Positions 886-39,052 of a stretch of 64,000 nt of DNA are shown in pieces. The stretch comes from Giesbergeria sp. GTDB lineage: Bacteria > Pseudomonadota > Gammaproteobacteria > Burkholderiales > Burkholderiaceae_C. A model generated the notes under the pieces. That model was not told where the DNA came from. It did no database searches and saw only the letters and a list, made by a program, of their open reading frames with translations. Within the stretch, counting starts at the first letter, position 1; each line of letters begins with the position of its first letter. The DNA is taken from assembly GCA_026647025.1 (NCBI GenBank), contig JAPKHH010000004.1:12743-76742 (forward strand), given 5' to 3'. A program made the translations under genes and the position numbers.

Positions 886-1041
886 GGCGAAAGTTCCTTG
901 TGGGAGATCGAATCAAGCCGCGAAGCATAGAACTGCGGCTGCAGGCTGTCCAAGGCCGGAGTGTTACGAAACTATGCGGCGCACGCATAACGGCTCCAAA
1001 TCCACACCGCTCCATGCACACGCCCGGTGGCGATGCCTGCG

Positions 1042-1926: not shown

Positions 1927-2109
1927 GAAAGGCTCCTGGTGTGTGGAAAACAGGGTCCGGCCCGGCGGGTCCCGGCGTCTGGCCCGTAGCATGCCGGAAA
2001 GCGCCTGTGCCTGCCACCGTGCGCACGCCTGCGGGCGTGACTGCCAGGCGCGCCTGCCGCCTGGTGTGGTGTTGCTACCGGTGTGAAGTCGCTGTCGCCA
2101 CTATTTTTT

Positions 2110-2163
2110 GCTATTGAAAATATAGCTGTCAGCGCTTGATGGATAAGCGTCAGAGGCCAATTT
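2110..2163 (+). repeat. Dispersed bipartite palindromic repeat, copy 1
   Basis: GCTAT-N7-ATAGC, then GCGCTTGATGGATAAGCG hairpin, then GAGGCCAATTT. Confidence 0.85.
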
Positions 2164-2200
2164 CACTCGCCAATTCAAATAGTCCCGGTGCCTGCGGATG

Positions 2201-3133: not shown

Positions 3134-3195
3134 CTATCAATAAATCTGAAATAAGCTGACTTTAATTATCAACCAGGAGCCGCTAAATTGGCGCC

Positions 3196-3660
3196 ATGGA
3201 AGCCCCGCCCCTCATCCCCGGCCTGCACGGCGTGCGCCGCCGCGTCGTCTACGTCAGCATTTACGAATTGATTGCGATTGCCGTTGCCACCCTCGGGCTG
3301 GCACAGTTCTCCAGCCACGGTGTGGCGCATGCCGGGGTGATGGCCGTGGTGTCGTCGGGCATCGCCGTGGCCTGGAATTTCATTTTCAACACCTTTTTCG
3401 AGCGCTGGGAGGCCCGCCAGGTCGTGCGCGGGCGCAGCCTGCGCCGCCGTGTGGCCCATGCGGTGGGGTTTGAGGGCGGGCTGGTGTTCACGCTGGTGCC
3501 GCTGTTTGCCTGGTGGTTCGAGATCACCCTGTGGCAGGCGCTGGTGATGGACCTGGGGCTGGTGGTGTTTTTCCTGTGCTACACCTTTGTCTTCAACTGG
3601 GGTTTCGACCGGGTTTTTGGCCTGCCCGCTTCGGCTTGTGCGGCCGAGCCCGCAGCCTGA
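3196..3660 (+). CDS. PACE-family (AceI-like) efflux transporter
   Basis: Two repeated halves: RRVVYVSIYE...WNFIFN and RRVAHAVGFEGG...FNWGFD; 4 TM. Confidence 0.88.
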   Translation: MEAPPLIPGLHGVRRRVVYVSIYELIAIAVATLGLAQFSSHGVAHAGVMAVVSSGIAVAWNFIFNTFFERWEARQVVRGRSLRRRVAHAVGFEGGLVFTLVPLFAWWFEITLWQALVMDLGLVVFFLCYTFVFNWGFDRVFGLPASACAAEPAA

Positions 3661-3691
3661 GTGCGGGGATCGCCAATCCCGGTAAAATCGG

Positions 3692-3766
3692 CGCCTCCCA
3701 AGGAGCGTTGCAGCGGCCCACGCCGCCAGGCTTGGGCCCTAGACCACCCGCAACGACGCTCACCTG
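3692..3766 (+). ncRNA. SAH riboswitch upstream of metH
   Basis: CCAAG-GAGCGTTGC-AGCGGC...GCCGCCAGG-CTTGG...CAACGACGCTCA matches the SAH riboswitch core (P1 CCAAG/CTTGG, GAGCGYUGC, CCAGGCU, AACGRCGCUCA). It lies directly 5' of metH. Confidence 0.88.
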
Positions 3767-3796
3767 CTTGCGGGTTTGTTTGCACAGGTGAGGCGC

Positions 3797-6532: not shown

Positions 6533-6643
6533 GCAGATCAAACCCTTGCGGGATGGCGTTGCACATCGTCCCGGAGGATGGTGGTTTGGTATTGACGGGG
6601 TGCGCCGCGGGCGCCAGACTGGCGCGTCCTTTCGGATGCCCGC

Positions 6644-8719: not shown

Positions 8720-9273
8720 GAATCCGCGGGCGGGTGTGCGCCGTTGCCCCGGGCGCTGGCGGCCATTTCCAGCTGCATCATCACCATGTTGACCAGGGTG
8801 CTGACCGTGGGCCGCCCGGTCTCGATCACATAGTGCGCGGTTTCGCGGTACAGGCCATCGCGCTGGGCGTAGAGTTCGCGCAGCCGCTCCAGCGGGTTGC
8901 CCACCTGCAGCAGCGGGCGCGTGCGGTCGTGCCGGACGCGGCGGTAAATGTCCTCGGGCGAGGCGCGCAGGTACAGCACGCTGCCAAAGTGGCGCAGTGC
9001 CTGCCGGTTCTCGCTGCGCAGCACGGCCCCCCCGCCTGTGGACAGCACCATGCCGCCGGGCTGTGCGGCGACCTGGGCCAGTACCTGGGCTTCCTGATCG
9101 CGAAAGCGCTCTTCGCCCTCGGTTTCGAAATACTGGCGGATGGAGGTTCCCAGCGTCTGTTCAATGCGGTGGTCGAGGTCCACAAAAGGCAATCCAAGCC
9201 GGTGGGCCAGTTGTCGGCCCACGGTGGTTTTTCCCGAGCCGGGCATGCCGACCAGTGCACAGCGAATCTGCAT
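8716..9273 (-). CDS. aroK: Shikimate kinase
   Basis: GMPGSGKTTVG, FVDLDHRIE, STGGGAVL, TRPLL. Confidence 0.9.
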   Translation of the reverse strand: MQIRCALVGMPGSGKTTVGRQLAHRLGLPFVDLDHRIEQTLGTSIRQYFETEGEERFRDQEAQVLAQVAAQPGGMVLSTGGGAVLRSENRQALRHFGSVLYLRASPEDIYRRVRHDRTRPLLQVGNPLERLRELYAQRDGLYRETAHYVIETGRPTVSTLVNMVMMQLEMAASARGNGAHPPADS

Positions 9274-9400
9274 AGGTTTGGATACGGTAGTGAGACATTG
9301 CGTGCCCGGAGCGGCCCGCTGGAGCCCGAGTTTACGGGGCCGTGCGGTCGCTTCCCCGAAAGGGGTGTGCGGCGCCCGCCGTGCCGTCTTCATGCGCGGG

Positions 9401-10222
9401 TCAGGCGCGGCCCTGCGCCTGTGCCAGCAACAAGGCCACCAGTGTTTCGGCTGCAGTGAGCACGATCTCGCTCAGGGCGGCCACCCGGTCGGCCTCTTTG
9501 CGCATCTGCGCGGGGTTCTGGCTTGCGAACAGAACTTGCTCGTAGGGCGCCCATACGCGCCGCACTTCTGCCGCCTGGGTCTTGACCGGTTCCGAGACAA
9601 AGGGCGAGTTTTCGATCGCGGGCAGTACGGCAGTGAAGTGGGCCCGGCTGAGGTGCAGCTCCATGTGGGCGGGAGCATCGTAGAGCCCCCAGGTGCGGTA
9701 GAAGTAGAACTTGGCCATGCGCTGCGTCAGCATGCGTTGGCGTCCGGCGATACCGATCAGATGGTCGAGTGGCGCACCGACCACGTTTTCGTAGGCCACC
9801 GTGTTGCGGTGCGCCGCCTGCTGCAGGGCCTCGTTGGCGTCGTAAAGCAGGTTGGCCGCTTGCCGGCCGGGGGGCTCGGCCAGCTGTGTCCGGAAGTGGG
9901 CCCACTGGGTTGCAAGGGGGGCCATGGCATTGCGCACCGCAGGGGTGGGCTGGAATCCACGCAGGGTGCCCAGGTGCGACTCGAATTGTTCGATCGATGC
10001 CTGCCACAGGCGGGTGGCCTGTTCAGGGGCAATGGATTGGCCAACCTGCAGATAGGTCTTGACGATGCGCTGGGACAGCATGCGCAACCGGCCCGCCAGG
10101 TCCACGGCCGAGGCCGTGTCCAGCCGGGGAGCCGTGGGGGCCGACTGCGCAAGAAGCGATGCGGGCCACGCAGCAACGCCGGACCCTCCCAGAAGCCACA
10201 CGCAGAATTGGAATCGGTCCAC
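9401..10222 (-). CDS. Exported protein with two PilJ/NarX-like sensor repeats and no output domain
   Basis: N-terminal signal-like segment. Repeats AVDLAGRLRMLSQRIVK and IGIAGRQRMLTQRMAK resemble the NarX P-box. Confidence 0.75.
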   Translation of the reverse strand: MDRFQFCVWLLGGSGVAAWPASLLAQSAPTAPRLDTASAVDLAGRLRMLSQRIVKTYLQVGQSIAPEQATRLWQASIEQFESHLGTLRGFQPTPAVRNAMAPLATQWAHFRTQLAEPPGRQAANLLYDANEALQQAAHRNTVAYENVVGAPLDHLIGIAGRQRMLTQRMAKFYFYRTWGLYDAPAHMELHLSRAHFTAVLPAIENSPFVSEPVKTQAAEVRRVWAPYEQVLFASQNPAQMRKEADRVAALSEIVLTAAETLVALLLAQAQGRA

Positions 10223-10360
10223 GAATGACCTCCTGCAAAGTCACGAAAAAAGGGGGCTGTGCATGCGCCCTTTGATCCCGCCGTGGGCGGATGGACCGGC
10301 CTGTGCCCGTTCCGGATCAAAGTCCGGAATGAGTATAGGGGTTTGCCTGCGCGCTGCGGT

Positions 10361-11134
10361 CTACTTTTCGACGAAGGCCCGCTCGATGACGAAATCACCT
10401 GGCTTGGTGGTGTTGCCTTCCTCGAAGTCGCGCTTTTCCAGCAGCGTCTTGAGCGAGGCGAGCATCTCGGGGCTGCCGCAGAGCATCACGCGGTCGGTCA
10501 GCGGGTCCAGCGGGGGCACGCCCAGGTCGGTGAACAGCTTGCCGCTCTCGATCAGGTCGTTGATGCGGCCCTGGTTCTTGAAGGGTTCGCGCGTCACCGT
10601 GGGGTAGTACTTGAGCTGCTGGCTCACCATCTCGCCCAGGATCTCGTGGGCGGGCAGTTCCTGGGTCAGGTAGTCGTGGTAGGCCAGCTCGTTCACCTGC
10701 CGCACACCGTGCACCAGGACCACTTCCTCGAACTTCTCGTAGGTCTCGGGGTCGCGGATCACGCTCAGGAACGGTGCCAGCCCCGTGCCTGTGGACAGCA
10801 GGTACAGGCGCTTGGCCGGCAGCAGGTAGTCGATCAGCAGGGTGCCCGTGGGCTTCTTGCCGACGATGATGGTGTCGCCCACCTGGATGTGCTGCAGGCG
10901 CGAGGTCAGCGGGCCGTCGGGCACCTTGATGCTCAGGAACTCCAGGTGTTCCTCGTAGTTGGCACTGACGATGCTGTAAGCGCGCAGCAGGGGTTTGTCG
11001 TTCACCTTCAGGCCGATCATGGTGAAGTGCCCGTTGGAGAACCGCAAGGCCGGGTCGCGGGTGGTGGTGAAGCTGAAAAGGCGGTCGGTCCAATGGTGAA
11101 CCGACAGCACGCGTTCTTCAAGAAAAGCGCTCAT
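10361..11134 (-). CDS. fpr: Ferredoxin/flavodoxin-NADP+ reductase
   Basis: RAYSIVS, STGTGLAPF, MLCGSPEML, FVIERAFVEK. Confidence 0.95.
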   Translation of the reverse strand: MSAFLEERVLSVHHWTDRLFSFTTTRDPALRFSNGHFTMIGLKVNDKPLLRAYSIVSANYEEHLEFLSIKVPDGPLTSRLQHIQVGDTIIVGKKPTGTLLIDYLLPAKRLYLLSTGTGLAPFLSVIRDPETYEKFEEVVLVHGVRQVNELAYHDYLTQELPAHEILGEMVSQQLKYYPTVTREPFKNQGRINDLIESGKLFTDLGVPPLDPLTDRVMLCGSPEMLASLKTLLEKRDFEEGNTTKPGDFVIERAFVEK

Positions 11135-11312
11135 GGTGTATTGGCAGGGATGTTGGAAACAGGTGCGCGCAGCGCGTCGCGGCGGAATGGAACCAGAGGC
11201 GACGCGCGATGCGGGTATTCCCCGTATTGTCCCGCAAAGCGCCGCACCGGTTCTGGCGGGGATCAAACCGGGGTGATTTCTGTGCTTGTGTGCGTGCCCC
11301 AGGACCGTGGAA

Positions 11313-12446
11313 TCAACGGTACTGCGCCAGATAGCGCCGCTCGAACCCGCGCTTGGCCCAGTGCATCAGGCGCAGGGGCGGCAGCAGCAGATTGCGCCGC
11401 TCGGTGCGCCAGACCAGGGTGCCGGTGCCCAGCGCGTCGATGATGCAGGCCAGCTCGACCTTGAAACCCGTGGTTTGCGGCCGTCCGGCCAGGCCGTCGA
11501 TCAGGTTCTGTGCAGCGGCGGCAGCCTGCAGGTCGGCCATGTGGGCTTGCTTGGGCATCCAGTCGGGGCCAGGAAAGCTGCCCGAGTCACCGACCACATA
11601 GACACGCTCCAGGCCGGGTACCCGGCACTGGGCGTCGGCCTGCAGCAGGCCGCCGGGCGAGCGCGGCAGGGTGGTTTGGTCGAACCAGGCGTTGCCGGTC
11701 ATGCCGGGCATGAACAGGATCAGGTCGGCGGCAAATTCACCGCCTTCGGTCACCACCTTGTCGGCCTCGAAGCGCAGCATCTTGTGGCCCAGGTGCGTGG
11801 TGATGTTGCGGCGTTCCATCTCGGCCAGCAGGTGGGCCACGGCCTTGGCGCCCAGGCGGGCGCCGGGTTCCTTGGAAGGGTTGAAGAACACCAGCTCGAA
11901 CTTGTCGCGCCGTCCCTCGCGGCGCAGCTGCGCGTCGATGCCGAACAGAAACTCGAACATCGGCCCGCCGCGCACCGCTGTCGGTTCGTTGGGGTTGCCG
12001 GCAAAGCCTACGGCAATGGTGCCGCCTTGCAGGGCCCGCAGCCGGTCGCGGATCTGCTCGGCTGCCGCAATGCCTTCGCAGGGCGTGATGGCGTGCCCGA
12101 TGCCGGGCAGTTTCTTGATGAAGCGCCCGCCGGTGGCGATCACCAGCGCGTCGTTGGCCACTTCGCCCGCCGTGGTCTGCACGCTGCGGGCGTCGGGCGT
12201 GAGGCCGGTGACCTCGGCGGCCAGGTGCTGCACGTCCATCCGTGCAAAGAATGGCGCCAGCGGCATGATGAGCTGCTCGCGCGTGCGCAGGCCGCTGGGA
12301 ATCCAGATGATGCCGGGCAGGTAGTGCAGTTCGCTGCGCGGGGAGATAAGGGTGATGGCGTCTTTGCAGCCGCGTGCGCGCAGTTCGCGCACGGCCGATA
12401 GCGCGCCAAAGCCGCTGCCCAGGATGGTGATGTGCTGGCCCGCCAT
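11313..12446 (-). CDS. sqrF: Sulfide:quinone oxidoreductase, type VI (SqrF)-like
   Basis: GSGFGA FAD motif; Cys123 (ITPCEG), Cys274, Cys334 (ELACIID); AVRGGPMFE lacks the second catalytic Cys of other SQR types. Confidence 0.75.
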   Translation of the reverse strand: MAGQHITILGSGFGALSAVRELRARGCKDAITLISPRSELHYLPGIIWIPSGLRTREQLIMPLAPFFARMDVQHLAAEVTGLTPDARSVQTTAGEVANDALVIATGGRFIKKLPGIGHAITPCEGIAAAEQIRDRLRALQGGTIAVGFAGNPNEPTAVRGGPMFEFLFGIDAQLRREGRRDKFELVFFNPSKEPGARLGAKAVAHLLAEMERRNITTHLGHKMLRFEADKVVTEGGEFAADLILFMPGMTGNAWFDQTTLPRSPGGLLQADAQCRVPGLERVYVVGDSGSFPGPDWMPKQAHMADLQAAAAAQNLIDGLAGRPQTTGFKVELACIIDALGTGTLVWRTERRNLLLPPLRLMHWAKRGFERRYLAQYR

Positions 12447-12447
12447 G

Positions 12448-12861
12448 TCAGTGGCCCTGGCCGCCCAGGGCCGTCACGACCCGCAGCAGGGCGGTGCGTG
12501 CGCCTTCCAGCGCCTCGCGCACGGCGGGGTTCTGGCTGGCGCTGGCTGCCAGGATCACGCGCGGGTCCTGCAGCAGCACGCGCGTCTGGCCGGGGGTGGC
12601 CTCGTGCGCGCTGGCGCCGCAGGGCAGCAGTGCGGCGATGTCGGGCTCTGCCGTGACCAGCGCGTGCGCCACCTTGGGCGAGCACACGCCGAGCAGGCGC
12701 TGGGGTGCGCTGTCGATGCCCAGCTTGGCTTTCAGTGTGGCCTGCATGTCCACCTCGCTGACGATGCCCATCTGCTCGGCGGCCAGGGCTGCCCGCAGGG
12801 TGTCGATGGCGGCGGACAGGGGCTGCGCAAGGGTGATGGCAAAGGCATAGGAGGGGGACAT
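12448..12861 (-). CDS. DUF302 domain protein
   Basis: GIVSEVDMQATLKAKLG...LGVCSPKVA...LLPCG pattern. Confidence 0.82.
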   Translation of the reverse strand: MSPSYAFAITLAQPLSAAIDTLRAALAAEQMGIVSEVDMQATLKAKLGIDSAPQRLLGVCSPKVAHALVTAEPDIAALLPCGASAHEATPGQTRVLLQDPRVILAASASQNPAVREALEGARTALLRVVTALGGQGH

Positions 12862-12886
12862 GGCCGGTCTTTCCGAAATATGAATA

Positions 12887-12940
12887 AAAACTGCCTCTGG
12901 CACTTGATGGTCAAGCGCCATTAGCTATCAACTAAATAGC
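12887..12940 (-). repeat. Dispersed bipartite palindromic repeat, copy 2
   Basis: Minus strand: GCTAT-N7-ATAGC, GCGCTTGACCATCAAGTG, GAGGCAGTTTT. Confidence 0.85.
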
Positions 12941-12947
12941 AAACTGG

Positions 12948-15658
<2,711 letters not shown>

Positions 15659-28136: not shown

Positions 28137-29147
28137 TCACAACGCAGGCGACAGCCGGGGGGAACGCACCAGAACGGGAATACCCAGCAGCACCGCCAGC
28201 AGCAGCGCCGCTGCCATGTTGTGGGCGAGAGCCGCCGCCAGTGGCAGGCCCAGCGTGACCAGTGCCACCCCCAGCCCGATCTGCGCTGCCAGCAAAGCCA
28301 AAAGCAAGAGTGCGGCAACGCGCAGCCCACCGCGCCAGGCGAAAGCGGCCAGCGGCAGCAGGACGGCCACCACCACCAGTCCGCCGACGCGGTGCAGTAC
28401 ATGCACCCACGCGCCGGCCGGGTGGTTCGGCAGCGCGGCGTTGGTCTGAGGCTCCGCCCAGGGATTGAAGGCGTCCCAGGAGCCAGCGCTCAGGTCGCAG
28501 CCCGTCAGTCCGGTGCAGCTCAGGCCGGCCTGTCCCGCGCTGACCAGCCCACCCAGCGCCACCTGCGCCAGCAAGAGCGCGGCGCCCAGCCAGGCCCAGC
28601 GGGCCAGGCGCGGTGGTGGACCACCGGGGATGGAATCCAGGCGGCCGGTCAGCGCCATCCGCACGCTCACCGCGAACATGACAAAGCCCCCCAGCAGGTT
28701 GCCCAGGGTGACGGCGGGAATGCGGGCATGGGCCGTCCAGCGCCCGAGCACCGCCAGAAAAAGCGCCAGCCCGAGCAAGCCCAGGGCCAGCCGCCCCTGG
28801 GGCCACAACACCGGCCGGGACGCCACCGCCGCCATCACCATGACCAGCACCAGCAAAAGCGCCGACGAGGCGATCACCCGGTGCGCCAGCCGCGCACCGG
28901 CGGTAGCGGCATCGGCTTGCAGGGGCGGCTCGCCCTGCTGTTGAGCGCGCCACTGCTGCCCGTAGCACTGGGGCCAGGGCTCGCAGCCCAGGCCTGCCTT
29001 GGACAGGCGGATATAGGCGCTCAGGCTGGTGATGGCCAGCACCAGCACGGCGCAGATCCAGGCCATGCGCCGCAGCAAAAGCACCCGCCGCTGGACCGGG
29101 TCCGCCGGAGAGGAAAGAAGAGAGGGAGGCATGGCAGGGAGGTTCAT
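28137..29147 (-). CDS. ctaA: Divergent heme A synthase (COX15/CtaA family)
   Basis: GLGCEPWPQC, AHR, GLSCTGLTGC, VLHR, AHN; ~8 TM; divergent from the oxidase operon. Confidence 0.78.
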   Translation of the reverse strand: MNLPAMPPSLLSSPADPVQRRVLLLRRMAWICAVLVLAITSLSAYIRLSKAGLGCEPWPQCYGQQWRAQQQGEPPLQADAATAGARLAHRVIASSALLLVLVMVMAAVASRPVLWPQGRLALGLLGLALFLAVLGRWTAHARIPAVTLGNLLGGFVMFAVSVRMALTGRLDSIPGGPPPRLARWAWLGAALLLAQVALGGLVSAGQAGLSCTGLTGCDLSAGSWDAFNPWAEPQTNAALPNHPAGAWVHVLHRVGGLVVVAVLLPLAAFAWRGGLRVAALLLLALLAAQIGLGVALVTLGLPLAAALAHNMAAALLLAVLLGIPVLVRSPRLSPAL

Positions 29148-29542: not shown

Positions 29543-30082
29543 ATGAGCGCCATTCTTCCCCCCTCAGAGCGGTTGTGGTGGAAACACCCGCTGGACCGTC
29601 TCGAAGCCGTCTGGATTGTCATCGCCTTCATCTGGTGCATGGTCATGTTCTTCATGATGGTTTTCTGGCATGTCTACGGCAAGCAGAACCTTGCGACCGA
29701 GACCTACAAGACCACACCCGACAAGTTCACCGCCGCCACCCAGGCCATGGTGGACAAGTACACCGTCCGCACGGAAACCGACCAGAACATTCCGGTGGTG
29801 CGTCCGCCCGAGGGCAGCGACATCTACCTGATTGGCCGCCTGTGGAACTGGTGGCCGATTCTGGAACTGGAAAAAAACAAATCCTACAAGTTGCACCTGA
29901 CCTCGATGGACTACAACCACGGTTTCTCGCTTCAGCCCACCAACATCAACATCCAGGTGGTGCCAGGATATGAGCACGTGATCAAGGTCACGCCCAACGA
30001 GTCCGGCACTTTTTCCATCATCTGCAACGAATTTTGCGGAATCAACCACCACACCATGGTGGGCCGCATGTACGTGAAGTAG
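29543..30082 (+). CDS. Heme-copper oxidase subunit II (B-family type, one TM, CuA)
   Basis: DYNHGF and CNEFCGINHHTM CuA ligands; WNWWP. Confidence 0.92.
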   Translation: MSAILPPSERLWWKHPLDRLEAVWIVIAFIWCMVMFFMMVFWHVYGKQNLATETYKTTPDKFTAATQAMVDKYTVRTETDQNIPVVRPPEGSDIYLIGRLWNWWPILELEKNKSYKLHLTSMDYNHGFSLQPTNINIQVVPGYEHVIKVTPNESGTFSIICNEFCGINHHTMVGRMYVK

Positions 30083-30095
30083 CAGGAGCACCGAC

Positions 30096-31793
30096 ATGAC
30101 TGCAACCACTTACCGTACCTGCCCGCGCTCGGGCCTGCAATTCGAATCCCAGGCGGAAAAGCTGATGATCGCCAATGCCGTCGCCGCCGTCGTGGCGCTG
30201 CTGGTCGGCGGTCTCCTGGCCATTGGTGTCGTGCTGACCCGCTGGCCCGCCGTGCACTGGCTGGCGGCCGACACTTTCTACATGGTGCTCACGGCACACG
30301 GCATCGACATGCTGATCTTCTGGATCATCTTCTTCGAAGTCGCAGTGCTGTATTTCGCCTCGTCGACACTCTTGCGGTGCCGCATTGCCACACCCAAGAT
30401 CGCCTGGGCGGCCTTCGCACTGATGCTGATCGGCGCGGTGATGAACAACCTGACGGTGTTCCAGGGCGGCTCCAGCGTCATGATGACCTCGTACGTGCCC
30501 ATGATGGCGTCGTCGTGGTTCTACCTGGGCCTCATCCTGTTCGCCGTCGGCGCCCTGATTGCGTGTTTTGTGTTTTTCGGCACGCTGGTGGTCGCCAAGC
30601 GCGAAAAAACCTACGAAGGCTCGGTGCCCCTGGTGACGTTTGGCGCCATCACGGCCGCCATCATCGCGGTGTTCACCATTGCCTCCGGCGCGATCATCCT
30701 GATCCCCACCTACATGATGGCCATTGGCCTCATCAGTGAAGTCGATCCGTTGATCTACCGCACCATCTGGTGGGCTTTCGGGCACTCGTCGCAGCAAATC
30801 AACGTGGCAGCGCACATCTCGATCTGGTATGCCGTGGCGGCCATCGCCTTCGGTGCCAAGCCCATGTCCGAGCGCGTCAGCCGTGGCGCCTTCCTGCTGT
30901 ACATCCTGTTCCTGCAGCTTGCCAGTGCCCACCACCTGTTGGCCGACCCCGGCATCAGCACCGAGTGGAAAGTGGTGAACACCAGCTACTTCATGTACTT
31001 CGCCGTGCTGGCTTCGATGATCCATGCGCTGTCCATTCCGGGCGCCATGGAGGTGGCCCAGCGTGCCAAGGGCTACAACAAGGGCCTGTTTGAATGGCTG
31101 CGCAAGGCGCCCTGGGGCAACCCTGCTTTTTCGGGCGTGTTCATCTCGCTCGTGGGCTTCGGCTTCCTCGGTGGCATCTCCGGCGTGATGATGGGTACCG
31201 AACAGCTCAACCTGCTGATCCACAACACCATCTACGTGCCGGGCCACTTCCACGCCACCGTGGTGATTGGTACCACGCTGACCTTCATGGCCCTGACGTA
31301 CTTCCTGATTCCTGTGCTGTTCCGGCGCGAGATGATCTCGCCCGGTCTGGCCAAGATCCAGCCGTACCTCTTCGGCTTCTCGATGTACTTCTTCTGCCTG
31401 GTGATGATGGGCGCCGGTACGCTGGGCGTTTCCCGTCGGCACTGGGACATGGCCTTCAGTGGCGCGGCCCTGGCCTATGAATGGCCCGGCGCGGCGTATC
31501 TGATGATGGGTCTGGTCGGTATCGGGGGGATTGCCGCCATCGTGGGTGGCGGCATCTACATCTACGTCACGGTGGGCTCCATCTTGTGGGGCAAGAAGCT
31601 CGATACCGGCGTCGTGAGCCCCAAGTTCACCCCGGTGGGACGGGCTGCACCCACAGCCGCCGCACAGACCTATGGCTCTGCAGGGTTCGTGGCTCCTGGC
31701 ACCTTCGTGCTGGCCATGTTCTTCCTGGTGTCCTTCGTGCTGTACTACTTCATCAACTGGAAGTACCTGGGCCAGCTCTGGGGCCTGAGCTAA
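30096..31793 (+). CDS. Heme-copper superfamily subunit I with Tyr->Gln; probable eNOR-type nitric oxide reductase
   Basis: TAHG (helix II), GHSSQQIN (helix VI, H+4 = Q rather than Y), SAHHLL (helix VII), GHFHAT (helix X). Confidence 0.78.
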   Translation: MTATTYRTCPRSGLQFESQAEKLMIANAVAAVVALLVGGLLAIGVVLTRWPAVHWLAADTFYMVLTAHGIDMLIFWIIFFEVAVLYFASSTLLRCRIATPKIAWAAFALMLIGAVMNNLTVFQGGSSVMMTSYVPMMASSWFYLGLILFAVGALIACFVFFGTLVVAKREKTYEGSVPLVTFGAITAAIIAVFTIASGAIILIPTYMMAIGLISEVDPLIYRTIWWAFGHSSQQINVAAHISIWYAVAAIAFGAKPMSERVSRGAFLLYILFLQLASAHHLLADPGISTEWKVVNTSYFMYFAVLASMIHALSIPGAMEVAQRAKGYNKGLFEWLRKAPWGNPAFSGVFISLVGFGFLGGISGVMMGTEQLNLLIHNTIYVPGHFHATVVIGTTLTFMALTYFLIPVLFRREMISPGLAKIQPYLFGFSMYFFCLVMMGAGTLGVSRRHWDMAFSGAALAYEWPGAAYLMMGLVGIGGIAAIVGGGIYIYVTVGSILWGKKLDTGVVSPKFTPVGRAAPTAAAQTYGSAGFVAPGTFVLAMFFLVSFVLYYFINWKYLGQLWGLS

Positions 31794-31808: not shown

Positions 31809-32708
31809 ATGCACACCACCACGATCCATCCCGCCGGGCGCAGTGCGGCACAGTGGACGCGCGACGTCATCTCGCTGTTCAAGCTGCGCATCGGTGTGCT
31901 GATCATGATTACGGCGCTCGTGGGCATGGCGGTCTCGCCAGGCCCGGCGCCCAGTCTGGTGCAGGTGCTCGTGCTTGCGCTGTCGGTGCTGATCGCGTCC
32001 GCCAGCGCAGGTGCGTTCAACCAGTATGTCGAGCACGAGAGCGATCGCCTGATGGCACGCACGCGCAAGCGGGCCTTTGCCACCGGGGCGCTGCCCCACC
32101 ATCCCGCCTGGCTGGCCCTGATGGCCGTGCTGCTGGCGGGGGCGGTGGCATCGGCCTGGCTGGTGCTCAACGCAGCGGCTGCGCTGTATGTGTTTCTGGG
32201 CGCCTTTTTCTACGGAGTGGTCTACACCCTGTGGCTCAAGCGGCGCACGGCGCTCAACATCGTGATCGGGGGGTTGGCAGGCAGCTTTGCCGTGCTGGCC
32301 GGGGCTGCCGCCATTGACCCGACTCTGGGCCCACTGCCCGTGCTGCTGGCCTTGGTGTTGTTCCTGTGGACGCCACCGCATTTCTGGAGCCTGGCAATCG
32401 CCAACAAGGCCGACTATGCGCAGGCGGGCGTGCCCATGCTGCCGGTCGTCGTGGGCACCGAGCGCGCTGCGCACATCGTTCTGGGCAGCACGGTGGCATT
32501 GTTCGTGGCTTCGCTGCTGCCGCTGGGATTTGGCGCCGGCCCGGTGTACGCCGTGGGCGCCCTGGTGGGGGGGCTGCACTTTGTGCACAAGTCGTGGCTT
32601 CTGGTAGCCCAGCCCAGCCGCGCCACCGCCATGGGTTCGTTCTTCGCTTCGCTGATCCAGCTCAGTTTGTTGCTGGTGGCGGCGTGCATCGACGCTTTCA
32701 TGCGCTAG
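31809..32708 (+). CDS. ctaB: Protoheme IX farnesyltransferase (heme O synthase)
   Basis: LFKLRI, FNQYVEHESDRLMARTRKR, YTLWLKRRT, FLWTPPHFWSL. Confidence 0.93.
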   Translation: MHTTTIHPAGRSAAQWTRDVISLFKLRIGVLIMITALVGMAVSPGPAPSLVQVLVLALSVLIASASAGAFNQYVEHESDRLMARTRKRAFATGALPHHPAWLALMAVLLAGAVASAWLVLNAAAALYVFLGAFFYGVVYTLWLKRRTALNIVIGGLAGSFAVLAGAAAIDPTLGPLPVLLALVLFLWTPPHFWSLAIANKADYAQAGVPMLPVVVGTERAAHIVLGSTVALFVASLLPLGFGAGPVYAVGALVGGLHFVHKSWLLVAQPSRATAMGSFFASLIQLSLLLVAACIDAFMR

Positions 32709-32728
32709 GGCCGGGAAGCCGGATTTTT

Positions 32729-33586
32729 ATGCACGCCACAGAACGTATTTCAGCACTGTCTGGGGCCGTGCTGTGTCTGTTCCTTGTTCTGTTGGCGCCA
32801 GCTGTCGTGCAGGCCTCGTCCCACGGGTCTGATCTGGGGTTGGACCGGGAGCAGGCACTGCGCACCAGCCAAGCTGCGTTGGGCCGCAAGATCGCTGACC
32901 ATACCCTGCTGGACCGTGAAGGTCGACCGGTCCGGCTTTCTTCCTACCGGGGCAAACCGCTGCTGGTCAGTTTCATCTACACCGGGTGCTTCCAGGTGTG
33001 CCCGACCACCACGCGGTCGTTGCAGGAAACGGTCGAGGGCTTGCAAAAGACCTTTGGCACCAACCAGTTCAACGTGGTGAGCATCGGTTTCAACCAGCCC
33101 GATGATTCGCCCCAGGCGCTCAAGGCGTTTGCCGCCCAATACCGCATCCATCAGCCCAGCTGGGAATTCTTGAGCCCCTCCATGGCTACCGTGGGGCCGC
33201 TGGCCCGTGATTTTGGGTTTGTCTACGAAGCCACTCCGGCGGGCTTCGACCATGTGCTGCAGGTGTCGCTGGTCGATGCGCAGGGGCGCATCGTGCGGCA
33301 GGTCTACGGGGAGAGCATTCGACCGGGCGATATCGGCGAACCCCTGAAACTGCTGCTCAACGGCACGCCGGTTGAGCCTTCCCTGGCGTTGGAAAGTCTG
33401 ATGGACCGTGTGCGCATCCTGTGCACGGTGTACGACCCCAAGACGGGCCAGTACCGGGTGGACTACACCCTGCCTATCCAGATTGCTGGGGGCATCACCT
33501 TTCTGATCGCCATGCTGGTGTTCTTTCTCAACGAGTGGCGCTCTGTACGGCGCAGTGCCCGCAACAAGGAGGCGCGCCGCGCCTGA
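32729..33586 (+). CDS. SCO-family copper chaperone with C-terminal TM extension
   Basis: FIYTGCFQVCP (CxxxC), FDH; signal peptide; C-terminal TM. Confidence 0.88.
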   Translation: MHATERISALSGAVLCLFLVLLAPAVVQASSHGSDLGLDREQALRTSQAALGRKIADHTLLDREGRPVRLSSYRGKPLLVSFIYTGCFQVCPTTTRSLQETVEGLQKTFGTNQFNVVSIGFNQPDDSPQALKAFAAQYRIHQPSWEFLSPSMATVGPLARDFGFVYEATPAGFDHVLQVSLVDAQGRIVRQVYGESIRPGDIGEPLKLLLNGTPVEPSLALESLMDRVRILCTVYDPKTGQYRVDYTLPIQIAGGITFLIAMLVFFLNEWRSVRRSARNKEARRA

Positions 33587-33601: not shown

Positions 33602-35188
33602 ATGCCCTTGCCTGGTTCAGCCTTTGTTTCCAAAGGATCTCCTGTTTCGCTGACGCTTCCGCCGGTTCCCCGCAGTGCGGCCCTCTACCGGGCCGTGGAA
33701 CATTCCTTTGACGTACCGTTCGGGGCGGCGCTGAACCCGCTCAAACATCTGGGGGCCCTCGGTTTCCTGTTTTTCTGGCTGCTGGTCGTCACGGGGGTGG
33801 TGCTCTACATCGTGCTCGACACCTCGGTCGGGGGCGCGTACCAATCCATCAACGATCTGGCCCAGGTGCCCTGGATGCTGGGCGTCATGCTGCGCGGCGT
33901 GCACCGCTACGCCGCCGATGGCTTTGTGATCGTCATGTTCGCCCATCTCCTGCGGGAATGGATGCTGGGCCGGTTCAAGGGTTTTCGCCGTGTTCCCTGG
34001 CTGACAGGTGTGCCCCTGGTTGCCCTGGCCTTTGTCAGTGCGATTGGAGGCTTCTGGCTCAACTGGGACCGCCTGGGCCAGTTTTCGGCTGTGTCCACGG
34101 CCGAGTGGCTCGATACCTTGCCGTTCCTGGCGTCGCCCCTGGCGCGCAATTTTCTGGGCGGCGTCAGTCTGAATGCGCGGCTGTTCACCCTGTTCGTTTT
34201 CGTGCATCTGGGTGTGCCGCTGCTGATGGTGTTTGCCCTGTGGTTTCATATCCAGCGCATCAGCCTCGCACGGGTTTTTCCGCCGCGTGCCTTGGCCTGG
34301 GGCACGCTGGCCATGCTGCTGTTGCTTTCACTGGTCCTTCCGGTGCGCAGCCAGGGGCCGGCCGACCTGATGTCGGTGCCCGTTTCCTTGTCACTGGACT
34401 GGTTCTTGTTGTTCATCCACCCCTTGATCGACGCTACTTCGGCGCAAGCGGTGTGGGCGCTCGTGGCCATGGTTTTCGCCGGATTGATACTGTTGCCGTT
34501 CACCCCCGTGCGCGCCGAACCCGTGGCCGTGGTGAACCCCGACCATTGCAGCGGCTGCAGCCGCTGTTTTGCCGACTGTCCCTATTCCGCCATTACGATG
34601 GTGCCCCACCCCAACGGGCGGCGGGGCATGCAACTGGCCGAAGTGCGTGCCGACCTGTGCGCCAGCTGTGGCATCTGTGTCGGCTCCTGCCCGTCTTCCA
34701 CGCCGTTTCGCAGTACCGAGGTACTGCACACCGGCATCGACATGCCGCAGTGGCCCATCGACGACTTGCGCGCCCGTTTGTTGCAGGGCCTGGCTGCCAT
34801 GCCGGGGCCGCGCAGGCTGGTGGTTTTTGGCTGCGATCAGGGCCAGCGCAGCCGCATGGGCGCGCCGGATGTCCTGCATCTGGGCATGGTGTGTGCAGGC
34901 ATGCTGCCGCCTTCCTTTGTCGAGTACGCATTGCGCGGAGGTGCCGACGGCGTGCTCATCAACGGCTGCCGCGAGGGGGGCTGTGAATTCCGCCTGGGCC
35001 AACGCTGGACACAGCAGCGCCTGAACGGTGAGCGCGAGCCGCATCTGCGCACCTCCGTGCCGGCCGAACGCTGGCGTGTCGTCTGGACCGACCCGGGCGA
35101 TGAAAGCCAGCTGGTATCCGCCCTTGAAGACATGCGCACGCATTGCGCACCCGGCGCACCTCACCCATTTTTGGAGAACACCCCATGA
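33602..35188 (+). CDS. Cytochrome b / 2x[4Fe-4S] ferredoxin / MvhD-FlpD-like [2Fe-2S] fusion protein
   Basis: GVHRYAADGFVIVMFAH and FVHLG...WFH (four heme b His); LDWF; CSGCSRCFADCP; CASCGICVGSCP; FGC...CAGM...GCREGGCEF. Start codon uncertain. Confidence 0.85.
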   Translation: MPLPGSAFVSKGSPVSLTLPPVPRSAALYRAVEHSFDVPFGAALNPLKHLGALGFLFFWLLVVTGVVLYIVLDTSVGGAYQSINDLAQVPWMLGVMLRGVHRYAADGFVIVMFAHLLREWMLGRFKGFRRVPWLTGVPLVALAFVSAIGGFWLNWDRLGQFSAVSTAEWLDTLPFLASPLARNFLGGVSLNARLFTLFVFVHLGVPLLMVFALWFHIQRISLARVFPPRALAWGTLAMLLLLSLVLPVRSQGPADLMSVPVSLSLDWFLLFIHPLIDATSAQAVWALVAMVFAGLILLPFTPVRAEPVAVVNPDHCSGCSRCFADCPYSAITMVPHPNGRRGMQLAEVRADLCASCGICVGSCPSSTPFRSTEVLHTGIDMPQWPIDDLRARLLQGLAAMPGPRRLVVFGCDQGQRSRMGAPDVLHLGMVCAGMLPPSFVEYALRGGADGVLINGCREGGCEFRLGQRWTQQRLNGEREPHLRTSVPAERWRVVWTDPGDESQLVSALEDMRTHCAPGAPHPFLENTP

Positions 35189-35688
35189 ACCGAGCCCTCA
35201 ACTGGACAGGGCAAGCCCTGCTCTATGGCAGTTTTGCCCTGGTAGTCGGCGTCTTCTCGCGCTGGCCCAGCTACCATCCTCTGGCGCCGAACGAGGCGCA
35301 GATCAAGGTCAGCTTCATTCACCATGGTGCGCGGATTGCCGAATGCCGCCCCTACACGGCCGAGGAACTGTCCAAACTGGCGCCGAACATGCGCGCGCCC
35401 ATGAAATGCGAACGAGAGCGCTCGCCGGTGCGCATCGAGGTCGAGGTCGATGGCGTGTCCGTCTATGCCCACACGGCCACGCCCTCGGGCTTCTCGCGCG
35501 ACGGTGCCTCCACGGTGTACCAGCGACTCAATGTTCCCTCGGGTGAACATCGCATCACTGTGCGCATGAAAGACAACATGAAGTCGCCCGACTTCCCGTA
35601 TGTGCACGACTCCACCGTCACACTGCAACCCGCGCAGGTCATGGTGATCGACTTCAACCCGGACAAAGGGGAGATCGTTCTGCTATGA
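35185..35688 (+). CDS. Hypothetical membrane-anchored protein with a probable periplasmic beta domain and a Cys pair
   Basis: ATGA-coupled to both neighbours; one N-terminal TM; ECRPY...MKCERERSP. Confidence 0.78.
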   Translation: MNRALNWTGQALLYGSFALVVGVFSRWPSYHPLAPNEAQIKVSFIHHGARIAECRPYTAEELSKLAPNMRAPMKCERERSPVRIEVEVDGVSVYAHTATPSGFSRDGASTVYQRLNVPSGEHRITVRMKDNMKSPDFPYVHDSTVTLQPAQVMVIDFNPDKGEIVLL

Positions 35689-37136
35689 GTGCACTGCCCT
35701 CTCACATGCTTGGCGTGCATGCCGCCGCAGGCCGCCCGTTGCCCGCAGCGATGCCGGGGCTGGACTATGAGCTCACGGTGCCGCAGGACGCCCGGCAGGC
35801 CCTGGCGCGTGGATGGCTCTGGCTGGGTCTTTTGGCGCTGGTGGGTTCGGGACTGTTTTCCATCCTGCTGGTGCTCTCGCGCACGCCGTACGTCAACCAG
35901 TGGTTGCCTGCGGCCAATTTTTTCCAGGTCTCGCTGGTGCTGCATGTCGATTTGTCGGTGCTGGTGTGGTTCGTGGCCCAAGGGGGCATGCTCTGGAGCA
36001 TTCACGGCACCCGGCGCGGCACGCACTGGGGCTGGCTGGCGCTGGCGGTGGCCGCAGTCGGCACATTGGCCATGGCCTTGGCGCCGTTTCTGAACCGGGG
36101 CGATCCCGTCATGGCCAACTACATCCCGGTGCTGGATTCGCCGCTGTTTCTGGGCGGCCTGGTCGTGTTCGGCGCGGGCACGGCTCTGCTGGTACTGCGC
36201 AGCCTGCTGGTCGCGCCCCGGCTGGGACTGGAGTACGACGGCCGCGGTGCGCTGGATTTTGGTCTGAGCAGCGCAGCCATTGCCACGGCCGTCGGTCTGC
36301 TGGCCTTTGCATGGTCCTATGCCGTGCTGCCGACCGCGCTGCATGGCAAGGCCTACTACGAAATCCTGTTCTGGGGCGGTGGCCACGCCTTGCAGTTCAC
36401 CTGGACCTTGCTCATGCTGGTGGGCTGGCTCTGGCTGGCCAGCGCCTGTGGTGCGCGCGTGCCCCTGAGCCCGCGCGTGGTGGTGCTCATGTTCGCGCTG
36501 GCCCTGGTGGGCGTCTTCATCACGCCCTATGCCTACCTGGCGCATGACATCACCTCGGTGGAGCACCGCAATCTGCTGACCTGGGCCATGCGGGCCGGTG
36601 GTGGACCGGCCATCGTGCCGGTGGGCCTGGCCGTGGTCTATGCCATCGCCACCACGCGGCTGGACAGCGACACCCTGCGCCCGCTGCGTGCCGCGCTGCT
36701 GGCATCGGTGCTGTTGTTTGCCGCTGGCGGGGTGATCGGCATCTTTATCCAGGGGAGCAATGTGCGCATTCCCGCGCACTACCATGGCTGCATTGTCGGG
36801 GTCACGCTGGCGCTCATGGGCGTGGTCTACAAGACCTTGCCGGCGCTGGGCTACCGTGCGCCCCAGGGGCGCCTGGCCACCTACCAGCCCTGGCTGTACG
36901 GTGCGGGTCAACTCATGCACATCATCGGGCTGGTCTGGTCGGGTGGCTACGGTGTGCAGCGCAAGGTGGCCGGTGCCGAGCAGGTGCTGCGCAGCACGGC
37001 CGAGGTGGCCGGCATGGGCCTGATGGGCCTGGGCGGGCTGATCGCCATCATCGGCGGACTGCTGTTCGTGGTGGTGGTGGTCCAGGCCATGCGACATACG
37101 CCCGCTGCGGCGGGCTCCAACGGGACGACACGATGA
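35685..37136 (+). CDS. Heme-copper subunit I paralogue lacking the helix VII His-His (CuB/FeB) pair
   Basis: LHVD (helix II), FWGGGHALQF (helix VI), PAHYHG (helix X); ~12 TM; no HH dipeptide in the protein. Confidence 0.75.
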   Translation: MSALPSHMLGVHAAAGRPLPAAMPGLDYELTVPQDARQALARGWLWLGLLALVGSGLFSILLVLSRTPYVNQWLPAANFFQVSLVLHVDLSVLVWFVAQGGMLWSIHGTRRGTHWGWLALAVAAVGTLAMALAPFLNRGDPVMANYIPVLDSPLFLGGLVVFGAGTALLVLRSLLVAPRLGLEYDGRGALDFGLSSAAIATAVGLLAFAWSYAVLPTALHGKAYYEILFWGGGHALQFTWTLLMLVGWLWLASACGARVPLSPRVVVLMFALALVGVFITPYAYLAHDITSVEHRNLLTWAMRAGGGPAIVPVGLAVVYAIATTRLDSDTLRPLRAALLASVLLFAAGGVIGIFIQGSNVRIPAHYHGCIVGVTLALMGVVYKTLPALGYRAPQGRLATYQPWLYGAGQLMHIIGLVWSGGYGVQRKVAGAEQVLRSTAEVAGMGLMGLGGLIAIIGGLLFVVVVVQAMRHTPAAAGSNGTTR

Positions 37137-39052
37137 TCAAACGATTCCAGGCCCTGCTGCAGTGGGTTTTCTTGCGTGTCGAGGGCTTGTTCAATGCGGC
37201 CTTTGGCGACCGCATCAATCCTTTCTACCACCTGGGGGCCATCACCTTCTTCCTGTTCTGGGTGGTTGGCGCCAGTGGCCTGTACCTGTACATCTTTTTC
37301 GAAACCGGTCTGTCTGTTGCGTATTCCTCGGTGGTGGCACTGACCGAAAACCAGTGGTTCGCTGGCGGCATCATGCGCAGCGTGCACCGCTACGCGTCCG
37401 ACGCCATGGTGCTGACCATGGTGCTGCACATGCTGCGCTACTTTGCCTTCAATCTGTACCACGGCTTTCGCTGGTTCTCATGGATCACCGGGGTGATGCT
37501 GATCTGGATGGTGTATGCCACAGGGATCAACGGCTACATGCTGCCCTGGGACCAACTGGCGCAGTTCGTCACCGTGACCAGTTTCGAGTGGCTTGACTGG
37601 CTGCCCAGTTTTGGCGGCACCTTGATGCGCAACTTCATCTACTCCTCGGCCGTGGGCGATCGCTTCTTCACCCTGCTGTCGTTCATGCACCTGGGCCTGC
37701 CCCTGGTGGTGCTGATGGTGATGTGGATCCACGTGCAGCGCGTTCCCAAGGCACGCACCACGCCGCCGCGTCCCATCGTCATCGGCCTGCTGCTGACCAT
37801 GCTGGTGCTGTCACTGGTCCTGCCGGTGCACAGCCAGGGGGGTATTAGCAACCTGGCACAGGCCGTGACGAATGTCGAACTCGACTGGTTCTACCTGGCC
37901 ATCTTCCCACTGCTGACCGAATGGCCGCTGGGCCGGGTCTGGGCGCTGGTGGTGGGCGGCTCGCTGGTGCTGGCGCTGCTGCCCTGGTGGCCCCCGCGCT
38001 TTCGCCGGGGAGCACACACCAGCCACCAGGTGGTGGTGCGCGGCGTGGATGGCGCGAGCGCGGAATTCAGCGTGCGCGAGGACGAAACCATTCTGGATGC
38101 CGGTCTGCGCGAAGGCCTGGCCTTGCCGTATGAATGCCGCAATGGGGGGTGCGGCCTGTGTCTGTGCAGCGTGGAGCACGGCAACATCGACCACCGGCCC
38201 TACCAGCGCAGTGCGTTGCCCGATGCGCAGAAGGCCCAGGGCAAGGCGCTGATGTGCTGCGCTGTGCCGCGTGGCGACGTCGTGATCGACGTGGAGGGTT
38301 TTACCGGTGCCGCCGCCCAGGCCGCCGAGGTGCACACTGCCACCGTGGCGCAACTGGAACGCCTGGCTGACGATGTCATGCGTGTGCTGCTGCAACTGCC
38401 CGAGGGCAAGACGCTGGACTTTGCTGCAGGCCAGTACATCGACATCCTGCTGGACGACGGCCAGCGCCGTGCGTTCTCGTTTGCCAACCGGCCCCATGCC
38501 AGCAGCCAGATCGAGCTGCACATTCGCCTCGTGCCCGGCGGGCGCTTTACGACCCATGTGTTCGAGGCGATGCGGGTGGGCGACGTCCTGCGTTTCGAAG
38601 GCCCGCGCGGCAGCTTCACGCTGCGCGAAAGCACGCACCCCATTTTGTTCGTGGCCGGTGCCACCGGTTTTGCACCGATCAAGAGCATTGTGGAAGATGC
38701 CTTCGAGCGGGGCGTGCAGCGCCCCATGCGCCTGTACTGGGGTGTGCGCCAGCGCAAGGACCTGTACCTGCTGGCGCTGTGCGAGCAATGGGCGCGGGAC
38801 CACACCAACTTCACCGTGGTGCCGGTCGTGTCAGAGCCCGCCGAGGGCGACGGCTGGACGGGCCGCACGGGACTGGTGCACGAGGCCATGCTGGCCGACT
38901 TTCCTGATCTCAGCGGCAACGAGGTTTACCTGTGCGGCTCTGTGAAGATGGTGGAAACTGCCGTCCCGGCCTTCATTGCCCAGGGCCTGGGTGAGGATGC
39001 CTGCTTCTCGGACGCATTCCTGATGGCAGCGCCAGCACAGACACAACAGTAG
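37133..39052 (+). CDS. Cytochrome b / [2Fe-2S] ferredoxin / FAD-NAD(P) reductase fusion protein
   Basis: SVHRYASDAMVLTMVLH; FMHLG...WIH; ELDWFY; CRNGGCGLC...C; RAFSFAN; GGRFT; AGATGFAP; YLCGS. Confidence 0.88.
   Translation: MIKRFQALLQWVFLRVEGLFNAAFGDRINPFYHLGAITFFLFWVVGASGLYLYIFFETGLSVAYSSVVALTENQWFAGGIMRSVHRYASDAMVLTMVLHMLRYFAFNLYHGFRWFSWITGVMLIWMVYATGINGYMLPWDQLAQFVTVTSFEWLDWLPSFGGTLMRNFIYSSAVGDRFFTLLSFMHLGLPLVVLMVMWIHVQRVPKARTTPPRPIVIGLLLTMLVLSLVLPVHSQGGISNLAQAVTNVELDWFYLAIFPLLTEWPLGRVWALVVGGSLVLALLPWWPPRFRRGAHTSHQVVVRGVDGASAEFSVREDETILDAGLREGLALPYECRNGGCGLCLCSVEHGNIDHRPYQRSALPDAQKAQGKALMCCAVPRGDVVIDVEGFTGAAAQAAEVHTATVAQLERLADDVMRVLLQLPEGKTLDFAAGQYIDILLDDGQRRAFSFANRPHASSQIELHIRLVPGGRFTTHVFEAMRVGDVLRFEGPRGSFTLRESTHPILFVAGATGFAPIKSIVEDAFERGVQRPMRLYWGVRQRKDLYLLALCEQWARDHTNFTVVPVVSEPAEGDGWTGRTGLVHEAMLADFPDLSGNEVYLCGSVKMVETAVPAFIAQGLGEDACFSDAFLMAAPAQTQQ

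Follow-up and report, generated by a model that had tools for sequence, protein, structure and literature searches.

A Rieske-less cytochrome b with an iron-sulfur and MvhD-like arm accompanies eNOR-type nitric oxide reductases

Cytochromes b that carry an iron-sulfur module in place of a Rieske partner were described by Kao and Hunte in 2014 (Genome Biol Evol, PMC4122944), who placed two types of fusion protein in a "PDWF-FeS" clade. No Rieske protein is encoded in the gene clusters of this clade. In one fusion type, a cytochrome b with an xDWF motif is joined to 4Fe-4S modules and an MvhD domain ('methyl-viologen-reducing hydrogenase delta'); in the other, exemplified by Alicycliphilus denitrificans BC, it is joined to a ferredoxin and a flavin oxidoreductase (PMC4122944). 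The large cytochrome b proteins called 'subfamily H' by Dibrova et al. (PMC5600118) probably represent the same clade. Here we analyse a gene of the first type, which we refer to as CybMvhD, in a 64,000-nucleotide stretch of Giesbergeria sp. DNA (the window; GenBank assembly GCA_026647025.1, contig JAPKHH010000004.1, forward-strand positions 12,743 to 76,742). The gene occupies 33602..35188 on the plus strand of the window and encodes a protein of 528 amino acids, in which the open reading frame and domain matches indicate a cytochrome b, two [4Fe-4S] motifs and an MvhD/FlpD domain. It is coupled near-exclusively to the genes of the nitric oxide (NO) reductase eNOR.

By its sequence, CybMvhD falls within the PDWF-FeS clade: it combines an xDWF motif with a non-Rieske Fe-S module in a Rieske-less gene cluster, although the motif reads LDWF and not PDWF. 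The fusion architecture was already known, and CybMvhD is a further member of a described clade rather than a new kind of protein. The initial annotation had called the fusion unexpected in a betaproteobacterial respiratory operon. This view is not borne out, and a rare fusion is ruled out by the 2014 description and by the size of the family: a word-based search returned more than 3,800 homologues, an exhaustive search gave 462 cluster representatives at 1e-30 or better, and a scan of species genomes found the fusion in at least 553 of them. A. denitrificans, a close relative of the window's organism, is among the relatives. A literature search for cytochrome b, MvhD and heme-copper in combination gave no match.

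The start codon of CybMvhD is an ATG 15 nt past the SCO1 stop codon, and its TGA stop overlaps the next ATG as ATGA, an overlap that recurs at the junctions at 35685 and 37133. The N-terminal part of the protein is a six-helix membrane domain (helices A-F; 33680..34516, plus strand), outlined by Pfam, the match to cytochrome b6, invariant histidines, the helices of the AlphaFold2 (AF2) model and Foldseek. It is followed by a ferredoxin-like domain with two CxxCxxCxxxCP motifs (34523..34699, plus strand), which rests on Fer4 matches and is predicted by topology to be cytoplasmic. The C-terminal MvhD/FlpD-like domain with a presumed [2Fe-2S] cluster (34814..35137, plus strand) is indicated by PF02662, MvhD chains, the fold and the cysteine pattern. 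The Pfam matches comprise Cytochrome_B (residues 43-218, 6.3e-18; 65.7 bits against a cut-off of 27.2), several 4Fe-4S (Fer4) dicluster families (residues 308-366, up to 1.3e-8) and FlpD (PF02662; residues 411-512, 5.9e-13; 49.3 bits against a cut-off of 22.3). In NCBIfam, residues 303-513 match the C-terminus of HdrA2, a ferredoxin plus MvhD unit, as one block (NF040770, 1.6e-21). The nearest solved structure for the membrane part is cytochrome b6 (chain 6rqf_I, 1.8e-16), and those for the C-terminal part are MvhD chains (9sw2_D, 6.3e-9; 5odc_D, 3.8e-8). The iron-sulfur motifs read CSGCSRCFADCP and CASCGICVGSCP. The product name assigned to the protein by the NCBI annotation pipeline PGAP is 'hydrogenase iron-sulfur subunit'.

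All motifs on which the initial annotation relied could be located. VHRYAADG in CybMvhD corresponds to VHRYASDA in the protein encoded at 37133-39052, HLG and LDWF occur in both, and CybMvhD contains FGC...VCAGM...GCREGGCEF together with the two CxxCxxCxxxCP motifs. The second protein, hereafter CybFNR, had been taken for a cytochrome b paralogue with NAD(P)H input. It is indeed a true paralogue, with 42% identity over 274 residues of the cytochrome b part (3e-63), and Pfam and NCBIfam matches assign a [2Fe-2S]-FAD-NAD(P) reductase to its 639 amino acids.

Conservation was assessed in a close set of 31 full-length relatives (61-91% identity) and a distant set of 35 relatives reaching down to 25% identity; full-length orthologues as a whole share 51-91% identity. 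The haem ligands H101/H115 in helix B and H202/H216 in helix D, each pair 13 residues apart, are invariant in both sets, as are the ferredoxin cysteines C316/319/322/326 and C353/356/359/363. C411, C431, C456 and C461 of the MvhD domain and W267 of the LDWF motif are invariant among the close relatives. Down to 25% identity, C411 and C431 are still invariant, and C456, C461 and D266 are at least 90% conserved. The AF2 model of CybMvhD is of moderate quality (predicted local distance difference test, pLDDT, 66.6; predicted TM-score 0.64) and shows, in order, six transmembrane helices, a ferredoxin-like domain and an alpha/beta domain. Foldseek aligns the model with bc1 cytochrome b over 285-350 columns and with MvhD (5odc_D) over 124 columns, at a target-normalised TM-score of 0.69, a root-mean-square deviation of 3.4 Å and E = 1.8e-4.

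Together these data describe CybMvhD as a predicted six-helix, two-haem cytochrome b of the bc1/b6 superfamily that lacks a Rieske partner. With bc1 cytochrome b, and with cytochrome b6 plus subunit IV of b6f, it shares the four-helix, two-haem core, the histidine spacing, the cd and ef loops with a Qo-type motif and helices E and F. The LDWF motif (34394..34405, plus strand) lies in the ef loop at the position of PEWY/PDWF. The Qo-type pocket seems to be retained, because LDWF, together with the preceding conserved ef-loop segment P-AD...P, aligns with PVWY of petB from the same genome. Unlike the bc complexes, CybMvhD has no Rieske protein, no cytochrome c1/f and no helices G and H: the set of helices E-H of bc1, or E-G of b6f subunit IV, is incomplete, and only helices A-F precede the Fe-S domain. 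The Fe-S arm after helix F is a further difference from the bc complexes. Since six helices and a bc1 topology put both termini on the same side of the membrane, the Fe-S domains would be cytoplasmic, a placement based on homology. At residue 49, the position of Cys35 of cytochrome b6 that ligates haem ci in b6f, the family has His or Gln within a conserved NPLKHLGA segment, and a covalent haem ci is therefore not expected. The operon contains no Rieske or cytochrome c gene. Canonical genes for Rieske protein, cytochrome b and cytochrome c1 (petABC) are located on another contig; further Rieske genes were not searched for genome-wide.

Other membrane proteins likewise use two stacked haems to join a cytoplasmic redox module to an outer site, among them the di-haem anchors NarI, FdnI, HdrE and QmoC, the MsrQ-Fre pair and NADPH oxidase. 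These have an unrelated membrane fold, whereas CybMvhD is of the bc type with a Qo pocket, and we know of none that has been linked to a haem-copper NO reductase.

The assignment of the C-terminus to the MvhD/FlpD family, as first annotated, is supported by the hidden Markov model PF02662, by the fold and by four conserved cysteines. Throughout the family, the first strand contributes one cysteine, a C-G/A-G/A motif another, and a C-x4-C pair the remaining two. C431, C456 and C461 align with MvhD cysteines, and C411 is located in the first strand, at the place of the cysteine-rich motif of MvhD. The four cysteines may form a [2Fe-2S] site. The domain thus resembles MvhD of the Mvh-Hdr complex (5ODC chain D) in its FlpD fold, its three aligned cysteines and its first-strand cysteine, and it differs from it in other residues. 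The MvhD stretch at FGC-DQG of CybMvhD we take to be FCCNWC, printed alignments beginning at MvhD residue 20. The first motif of the CybMvhD domain has a single cysteine, so that the extra Cys16 is missing, and GCREGGC stands at the position of GCHxGDC without counterparts of His68 and Asp71. These three MvhD residues, Cys16, His68 and Asp71, have been tied to electron transfer to HdrA (PMC13580544). The domain is therefore no sign of an Hdr-type bifurcating complex. Such a context, to which the initial annotation had alluded, is ruled out by the missing Hdr-coupling residues and by a genome scan in which the FlpD domain of CybMvhD is the only one (52.9 bits), HdrA itself not having been searched for.

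The link to eNOR emerges from two genome samples. In an even sample of 301 genomes from the order of the window's organism, the 40 genomes with an eNOR-type subunit I (threshold E <= 1e-80) are exactly those with a member of the cytochrome b family (threshold E <= 1e-20), which is found in 0 of the other 261 (Fisher p = 9e-51). In a phylum-wide sample of 401 genomes, 49 have both and 5 just one. Of these five, four come from assemblies that are fragmentary or incomplete; the remaining one (G386) has 360 contigs at 97% completeness. A Rieske-less bc-type cytochrome b of this family accompanies eNOR in 89 of the 90 positive sampled genomes, and the MvhD form is present in about 85. The same neighbourhood recurs in Methylomirabilota, in Spirochaetota and in another Gammaproteobacterium. 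Other sampled genera of the window's own family have neither eNOR nor the cytochrome b fusions; the operon is patchy in the family and was probably acquired as a unit. The source organism is a denitrifier, with NirS and six haem-copper oxidase (HCO)-family genes in its genome, and NirS or NirK adjoins the module in three further loci (L085, L089, L096).

In the window, the eNOR-type reductase (29543..31793, plus strand; Pfam COX2/COX1) consists of a CuA subunit II (29543-30082) and a subunit I (30096-31793). The CuA motif is intact, and in subunit I Gln replaces the cross-linked Tyr (GHSSQQ), a replacement that is diagnostic of eNOR (PMC8756737). Genes for the haem O synthase CtaB (31809-32708; Pfam UbiA) and the copper chaperone SCO1/SenC (about 32729-33586; Pfam SCO1-SenC) follow on the plus strand (31809..33586) and are conserved upstream of CybMvhD across loci. 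Downstream of CybMvhD, all on the plus strand, are p181 (35185..35688; 167 amino acids), whose ATG overlaps the CybMvhD stop, HCOx (35685..37136; Pfam COX1, 3.4e-13), a divergent paralogue of HCO subunit I, and CybFNR (37133..39052), which combines cytochrome b with a [2Fe-2S] ferredoxin and a FAD/NAD(P) reductase (Fer2, FAD_binding_6, NAD_binding_1). The gene for the haem A synthase CtaA (28137..29147, minus strand; Pfam COX15-CtaA, 9.7e-35) is divergent.

This arrangement is widespread. The 80 best loci, from Burkholderiales, Rhodocyclales, Lysobacterales and Steroidobacter, have the near-constant order NorII-NorI-CtaB-SCO-CybMvhD-p181-(HCOx)-CybFNR. Counting only loci with enough flanking sequence, p181 lies downstream of CybMvhD in 77 of 77 and NorI upstream in 57 of 58. 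HCOx is nearby in 56 of 59 and CtaA in 29 of 51, and CybFNR is close in 58 of 59, the single exception carrying it 17 kb away.

The constant partner p181 is modelled with high confidence (pLDDT 92.4) as one transmembrane helix followed by a periplasmic beta-sandwich. Forms of about 700 amino acids in Gammaproteobacteria, Spirochaetota and others (P0272, P0236, P0154) consist of CybMvhD, a transmembrane helix and a domain homologous to p181, with 37% identity between that C-terminal domain and p181 (2e-35). Because it is fused to the C-terminus of CybMvhD in these forms, we regard p181 as a subunit with a periplasmic domain. Its residues M69 and R70 are invariant. A cysteine pair is 99% conserved in the mainly proteobacterial copies and absent in Methylomirabilota and Spirochaetota. 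A search of the PDB with the model gave no match at E <= 0.001; the only matches were plain beta-sandwiches, without a redox fold. A role of p181 as a substitute for a Rieske protein or a cupredoxin is ruled out, given a confident model without such a fold and a cysteine pair that is not universal.

An expressed instance of the module comes from Ferrigenium straubiae, whose eNOR operon holds both orthologues, each detected in the proteome (bioRxiv 10.64898/2026.01.22.701106). There, 'Cytbc1CCC-like protein 2' (IMG 2878407323) and 'protein 1' (2878407319) are an orthologous pair like CybMvhD and CybFNR. The gene order differs: Sco1 is succeeded by the FNR fusion, and the MvhD fusion is located downstream of it. 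The authors considered these genes 'rather unusual' for eNOR operons and suggested a quinol:NAD+ oxidoreductase or a supercomplex (bioRxiv 10.64898/2026.01.22.701106). In contrast to the former view, the MvhD fusion is near universal with eNOR in the genomes sampled here. Across conditions, the CybMvhD orthologue reaches 5-130 transcripts per million (TPM), against 74-15,000 for eNOR II; the proteome scores are 23.9 for the CybMvhD orthologue, 31.6 for eNOR and 24.7 for Sco1.

We propose that CybMvhD and p181 form a dedicated accessory of eNOR that serves as an electron wire through the membrane, connecting the Fe-S arm with a pocket on the positive side (P side), with outward flow as the most probable direction. 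We give this proposal roughly an even chance of being correct, and in this assignment of the most likely function both the direction of flow and the choice between catalysis and maturation are kept as alternatives. In the proposed mechanism, a cytoplasmic reductant would serve as the electron source, either ferredoxin or NAD(P)H via a flavoprotein docked on the MvhD domain. This flavoprotein could be the FNR module of CybFNR here and a NuoF-like protein in a lineage in which two CybMvhD copies flank such a gene (L089). The two [4Fe-4S] clusters and the MvhD-type [2Fe-2S] cluster would form a cytoplasmic relay at the C-terminus of CybMvhD, from which electrons would pass through haems bH and bL, with a quinone in the LDWF pocket or the eNOR assembly as acceptor. 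NO reduction would then be fed independently of bc1 and cytochrome c.

Outward flow is favoured for three reasons. Inward transfer from quinol to NAD(P)+ would run against both the potential difference and the membrane field, as follows from established bioenergetics. The BenC/Fre-like module of CybFNR is a typical NAD(P)H-oxidising input. Finally, MvhD domains are connectors between proteins and could dock on such a flavoprotein.

Several observations weigh against an electron wire that feeds eNOR. The purified eNOR of Rhodothermus marinus is a two-subunit enzyme that is active with artificial donors and has its own CuA entry (PMC11214002), and for these reasons eNOR does not obviously need a CybMvhD module. 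The expression data from Ferrigenium fit an accessory or maturation role better than that of a stoichiometric subunit. Outward flow into a quinone site on the P side would dissipate membrane potential. No conserved gene for a cytoplasmic donor was found beside single-copy CybMvhD; in the two loci L095 and L096, the neighbours are unrelated genes and NirS. A further point against the proposal is that the AF2 model of CybMvhD is only of moderate quality.

Compatible with every functional reading is the suggestion, made in the initial annotation, that the two cytochromes b pair like the bc1 dimer. It concerns quaternary structure: here, CybMvhD and CybFNR would be obligate partners in a bc1-like heterodimer, one side taking a ferredoxin-type input and the other NAD(P)H. 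We regard this as possible but rather doubtful. The two genes are close together and linked by ATGA translational coupling. About 36 of the 40 positive genomes in the order sample encode both paralogues, and 58 of 59 loci contain the pair. In a tree of the cytochrome b domains, the MvhD-type and FNR-type clades branch in parallel. Paired paralogues have also arisen separately elsewhere, around the NuoF-like gene of L089 and as tandem genes in a family with small genomes; that pairing arose more than once follows from the position of the two L089 copies as sisters in the tree. However, CybFNR occurs alone in three genomes (G048, G118, G230), and CybMvhD without CybFNR in G014, Methylomirabilota, another Gammaproteobacterium and numerous further families of Pseudomonadota. 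In one locus (L093) each cytochrome b has its own p181, and in Ferrigenium the genes are separated and their transcripts unequal, at about 5-130 against 40-1060 TPM. The heterodimer is not a general property of the family, and obligate pairing family-wide is ruled out, since each partner is also found alone beside eNOR.

Alternatively, the cytochrome b fusions, p181 and HCOx may supply or remove electrons for building the cofactors of eNOR. Candidate targets are the haem A synthase CtaA, whose active site is near the external face of the membrane, or a haem on the HCO paralogue. The genes are placed after CtaB and SCO and near CtaA, not beside the structural genes, and the expression of the Ferrigenium orthologue is near that of Sco1 and unlike that of eNOR. 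CybFNR, moreover, is a ferredoxin plus ferredoxin-reductase module. Cox15, the eukaryotic counterpart of CtaA, depends on just such a pair, the ferredoxin Yah1 and its reductase Arh1. Both haem sites of eNOR hold a modified haem A, and CtaA is encoded in many eNOR operons (PMC11214002). We nevertheless consider a pure maturation role unlikely. A-type oxidases need haem A too, yet in the order they are unlinked to the cytochrome b family, which only eNOR-positive genomes possess. CtaA adjoins in just 29 of 51 loci, HCOx is missing from some loci that retain CybMvhD and p181, and the conserved Qo-type quinone pocket is hard to explain in a pure maturation factor.

In a reversed scheme, which we judge improbable, quinol would be oxidised in the LDWF pocket by a Rieske-less, Qo-type bifurcation. 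Here, one electron would go to the strongly oxidising eNOR branch and the other inward via bL and bH, leaving through the Fe-S/MvhD arm or the CybFNR arm to yield reduced ferredoxin or NAD(P)H. The retention of a Qo-type motif without a Rieske protein is consistent with this scheme, as is the usual role of MvhD-type modules in routing low-potential electrons. A precedent has been proposed in the anammox Rieske/cytochrome b complexes that include NAD(P) oxidoreductase subunits, and autotrophic Fe(II) oxidisers, for which reverse electron flow is a necessity, are among the organisms that carry the operon. For Ferrigenium, a coupling of NO reduction to NAD+ reduction has been proposed (bioRxiv 10.64898/2026.01.22.701106). 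On the other hand, nothing at the pocket is recognisable as a high-potential one-electron acceptor, p181 being modelled as a plain beta-sandwich whose cysteine pair is not universal, and the inward electron would have to move against both the potential difference and the membrane field. The hosts are mostly heterotrophic denitrifiers without an obvious need for such a reaction, and expression is low relative to eNOR.

eNOR is a widespread and recently validated NO reductase, and hence a source of N2O. CybMvhD is an obvious candidate for the missing link between this enzyme and metabolism, whether as a private route from NAD(P)H or ferredoxin to NO, as a maturation device or, least likely and most interesting, as a quinol bifurcation system. 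The last, if true, would be a new quinone-based electron bifurcation outside the Rieske/cytochrome b complexes, driven by NO reduction. CybMvhD would also show that a whole cytochrome b bearing a Qo site can be reused outside bc complexes. The value of the finding is that it marks the question of what a near-universal companion of eNOR does, and cultivable denitrifiers with the operon (Alicycliphilus, Comamonas, Simplicispira) make the case testable.

The family also shows considerable variation in architecture. On two metagenomic contigs (P0184, P0278), a 761-amino-acid protein joins a cytochrome b of the CybMvhD family to an HCO paralogue whose sequence is 61% identical to HCOx of the window. 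In this protein, the cytochrome b has no Fe-S arm and the HCO paralogue lacks CuB. NirS comes next on the one contig that was read (L085:2-2287), where the reading frame begins at the contig edge, so that the N-terminus may be incomplete. In another protein (P0185, 827 amino acids), a cytochrome b of the family has a flavodoxin-FAD-NAD diflavin reductase where CybMvhD has its Fe-S arm, which would represent a third type of cytoplasmic input module.

Duplicated copies occur in two settings. In L089:5617-11121, two CybMvhD::p181 genes (704 and 706 amino acids) flank the NuoF-like gene (Complex1_51K, NADH_4Fe-4S), and the cluster also holds NirK-like, eNOR, HCOx, CtaB and SCO genes and a separate Rieske/cytochrome b set. 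In a family with 2-Mb genomes, two CybMvhD genes lie in tandem. A further locus (L093; G013:C4:126000-138000) has the order CybFNR-p181-Cyb-p181-HCOx, with one p181 after each cytochrome b; in this CybMvhD orthologue, the Fe-S/MvhD part has been lost. CybMvhD and p181 also occur far from eNOR (L095:2905-5448, 8771-11597), followed by a methyltransferase gene and a B12-binding radical SAM gene; upstream, in opposite orientation, are genes for an Rrf2-family regulator and an IscS-like protein.

Two observations concern CybFNR. Stand-alone Fer2-FNR proteins with about 50% identity to its reductase module are encoded at G014:C33:14435-15409 and G682:C3:100166-101101, and one of the host genomes has CybMvhD and no CybFNR. 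Such a protein could be a soluble partner or an unrelated oxygenase reductase. In four genomes (G048, G166, G230, G289), stop-to-stop frames of about 1,200 amino acids contain a CybFNR-type cytochrome b, which suggests that the gene is fused in frame to its neighbour (HCOx or p181) in some genomes.

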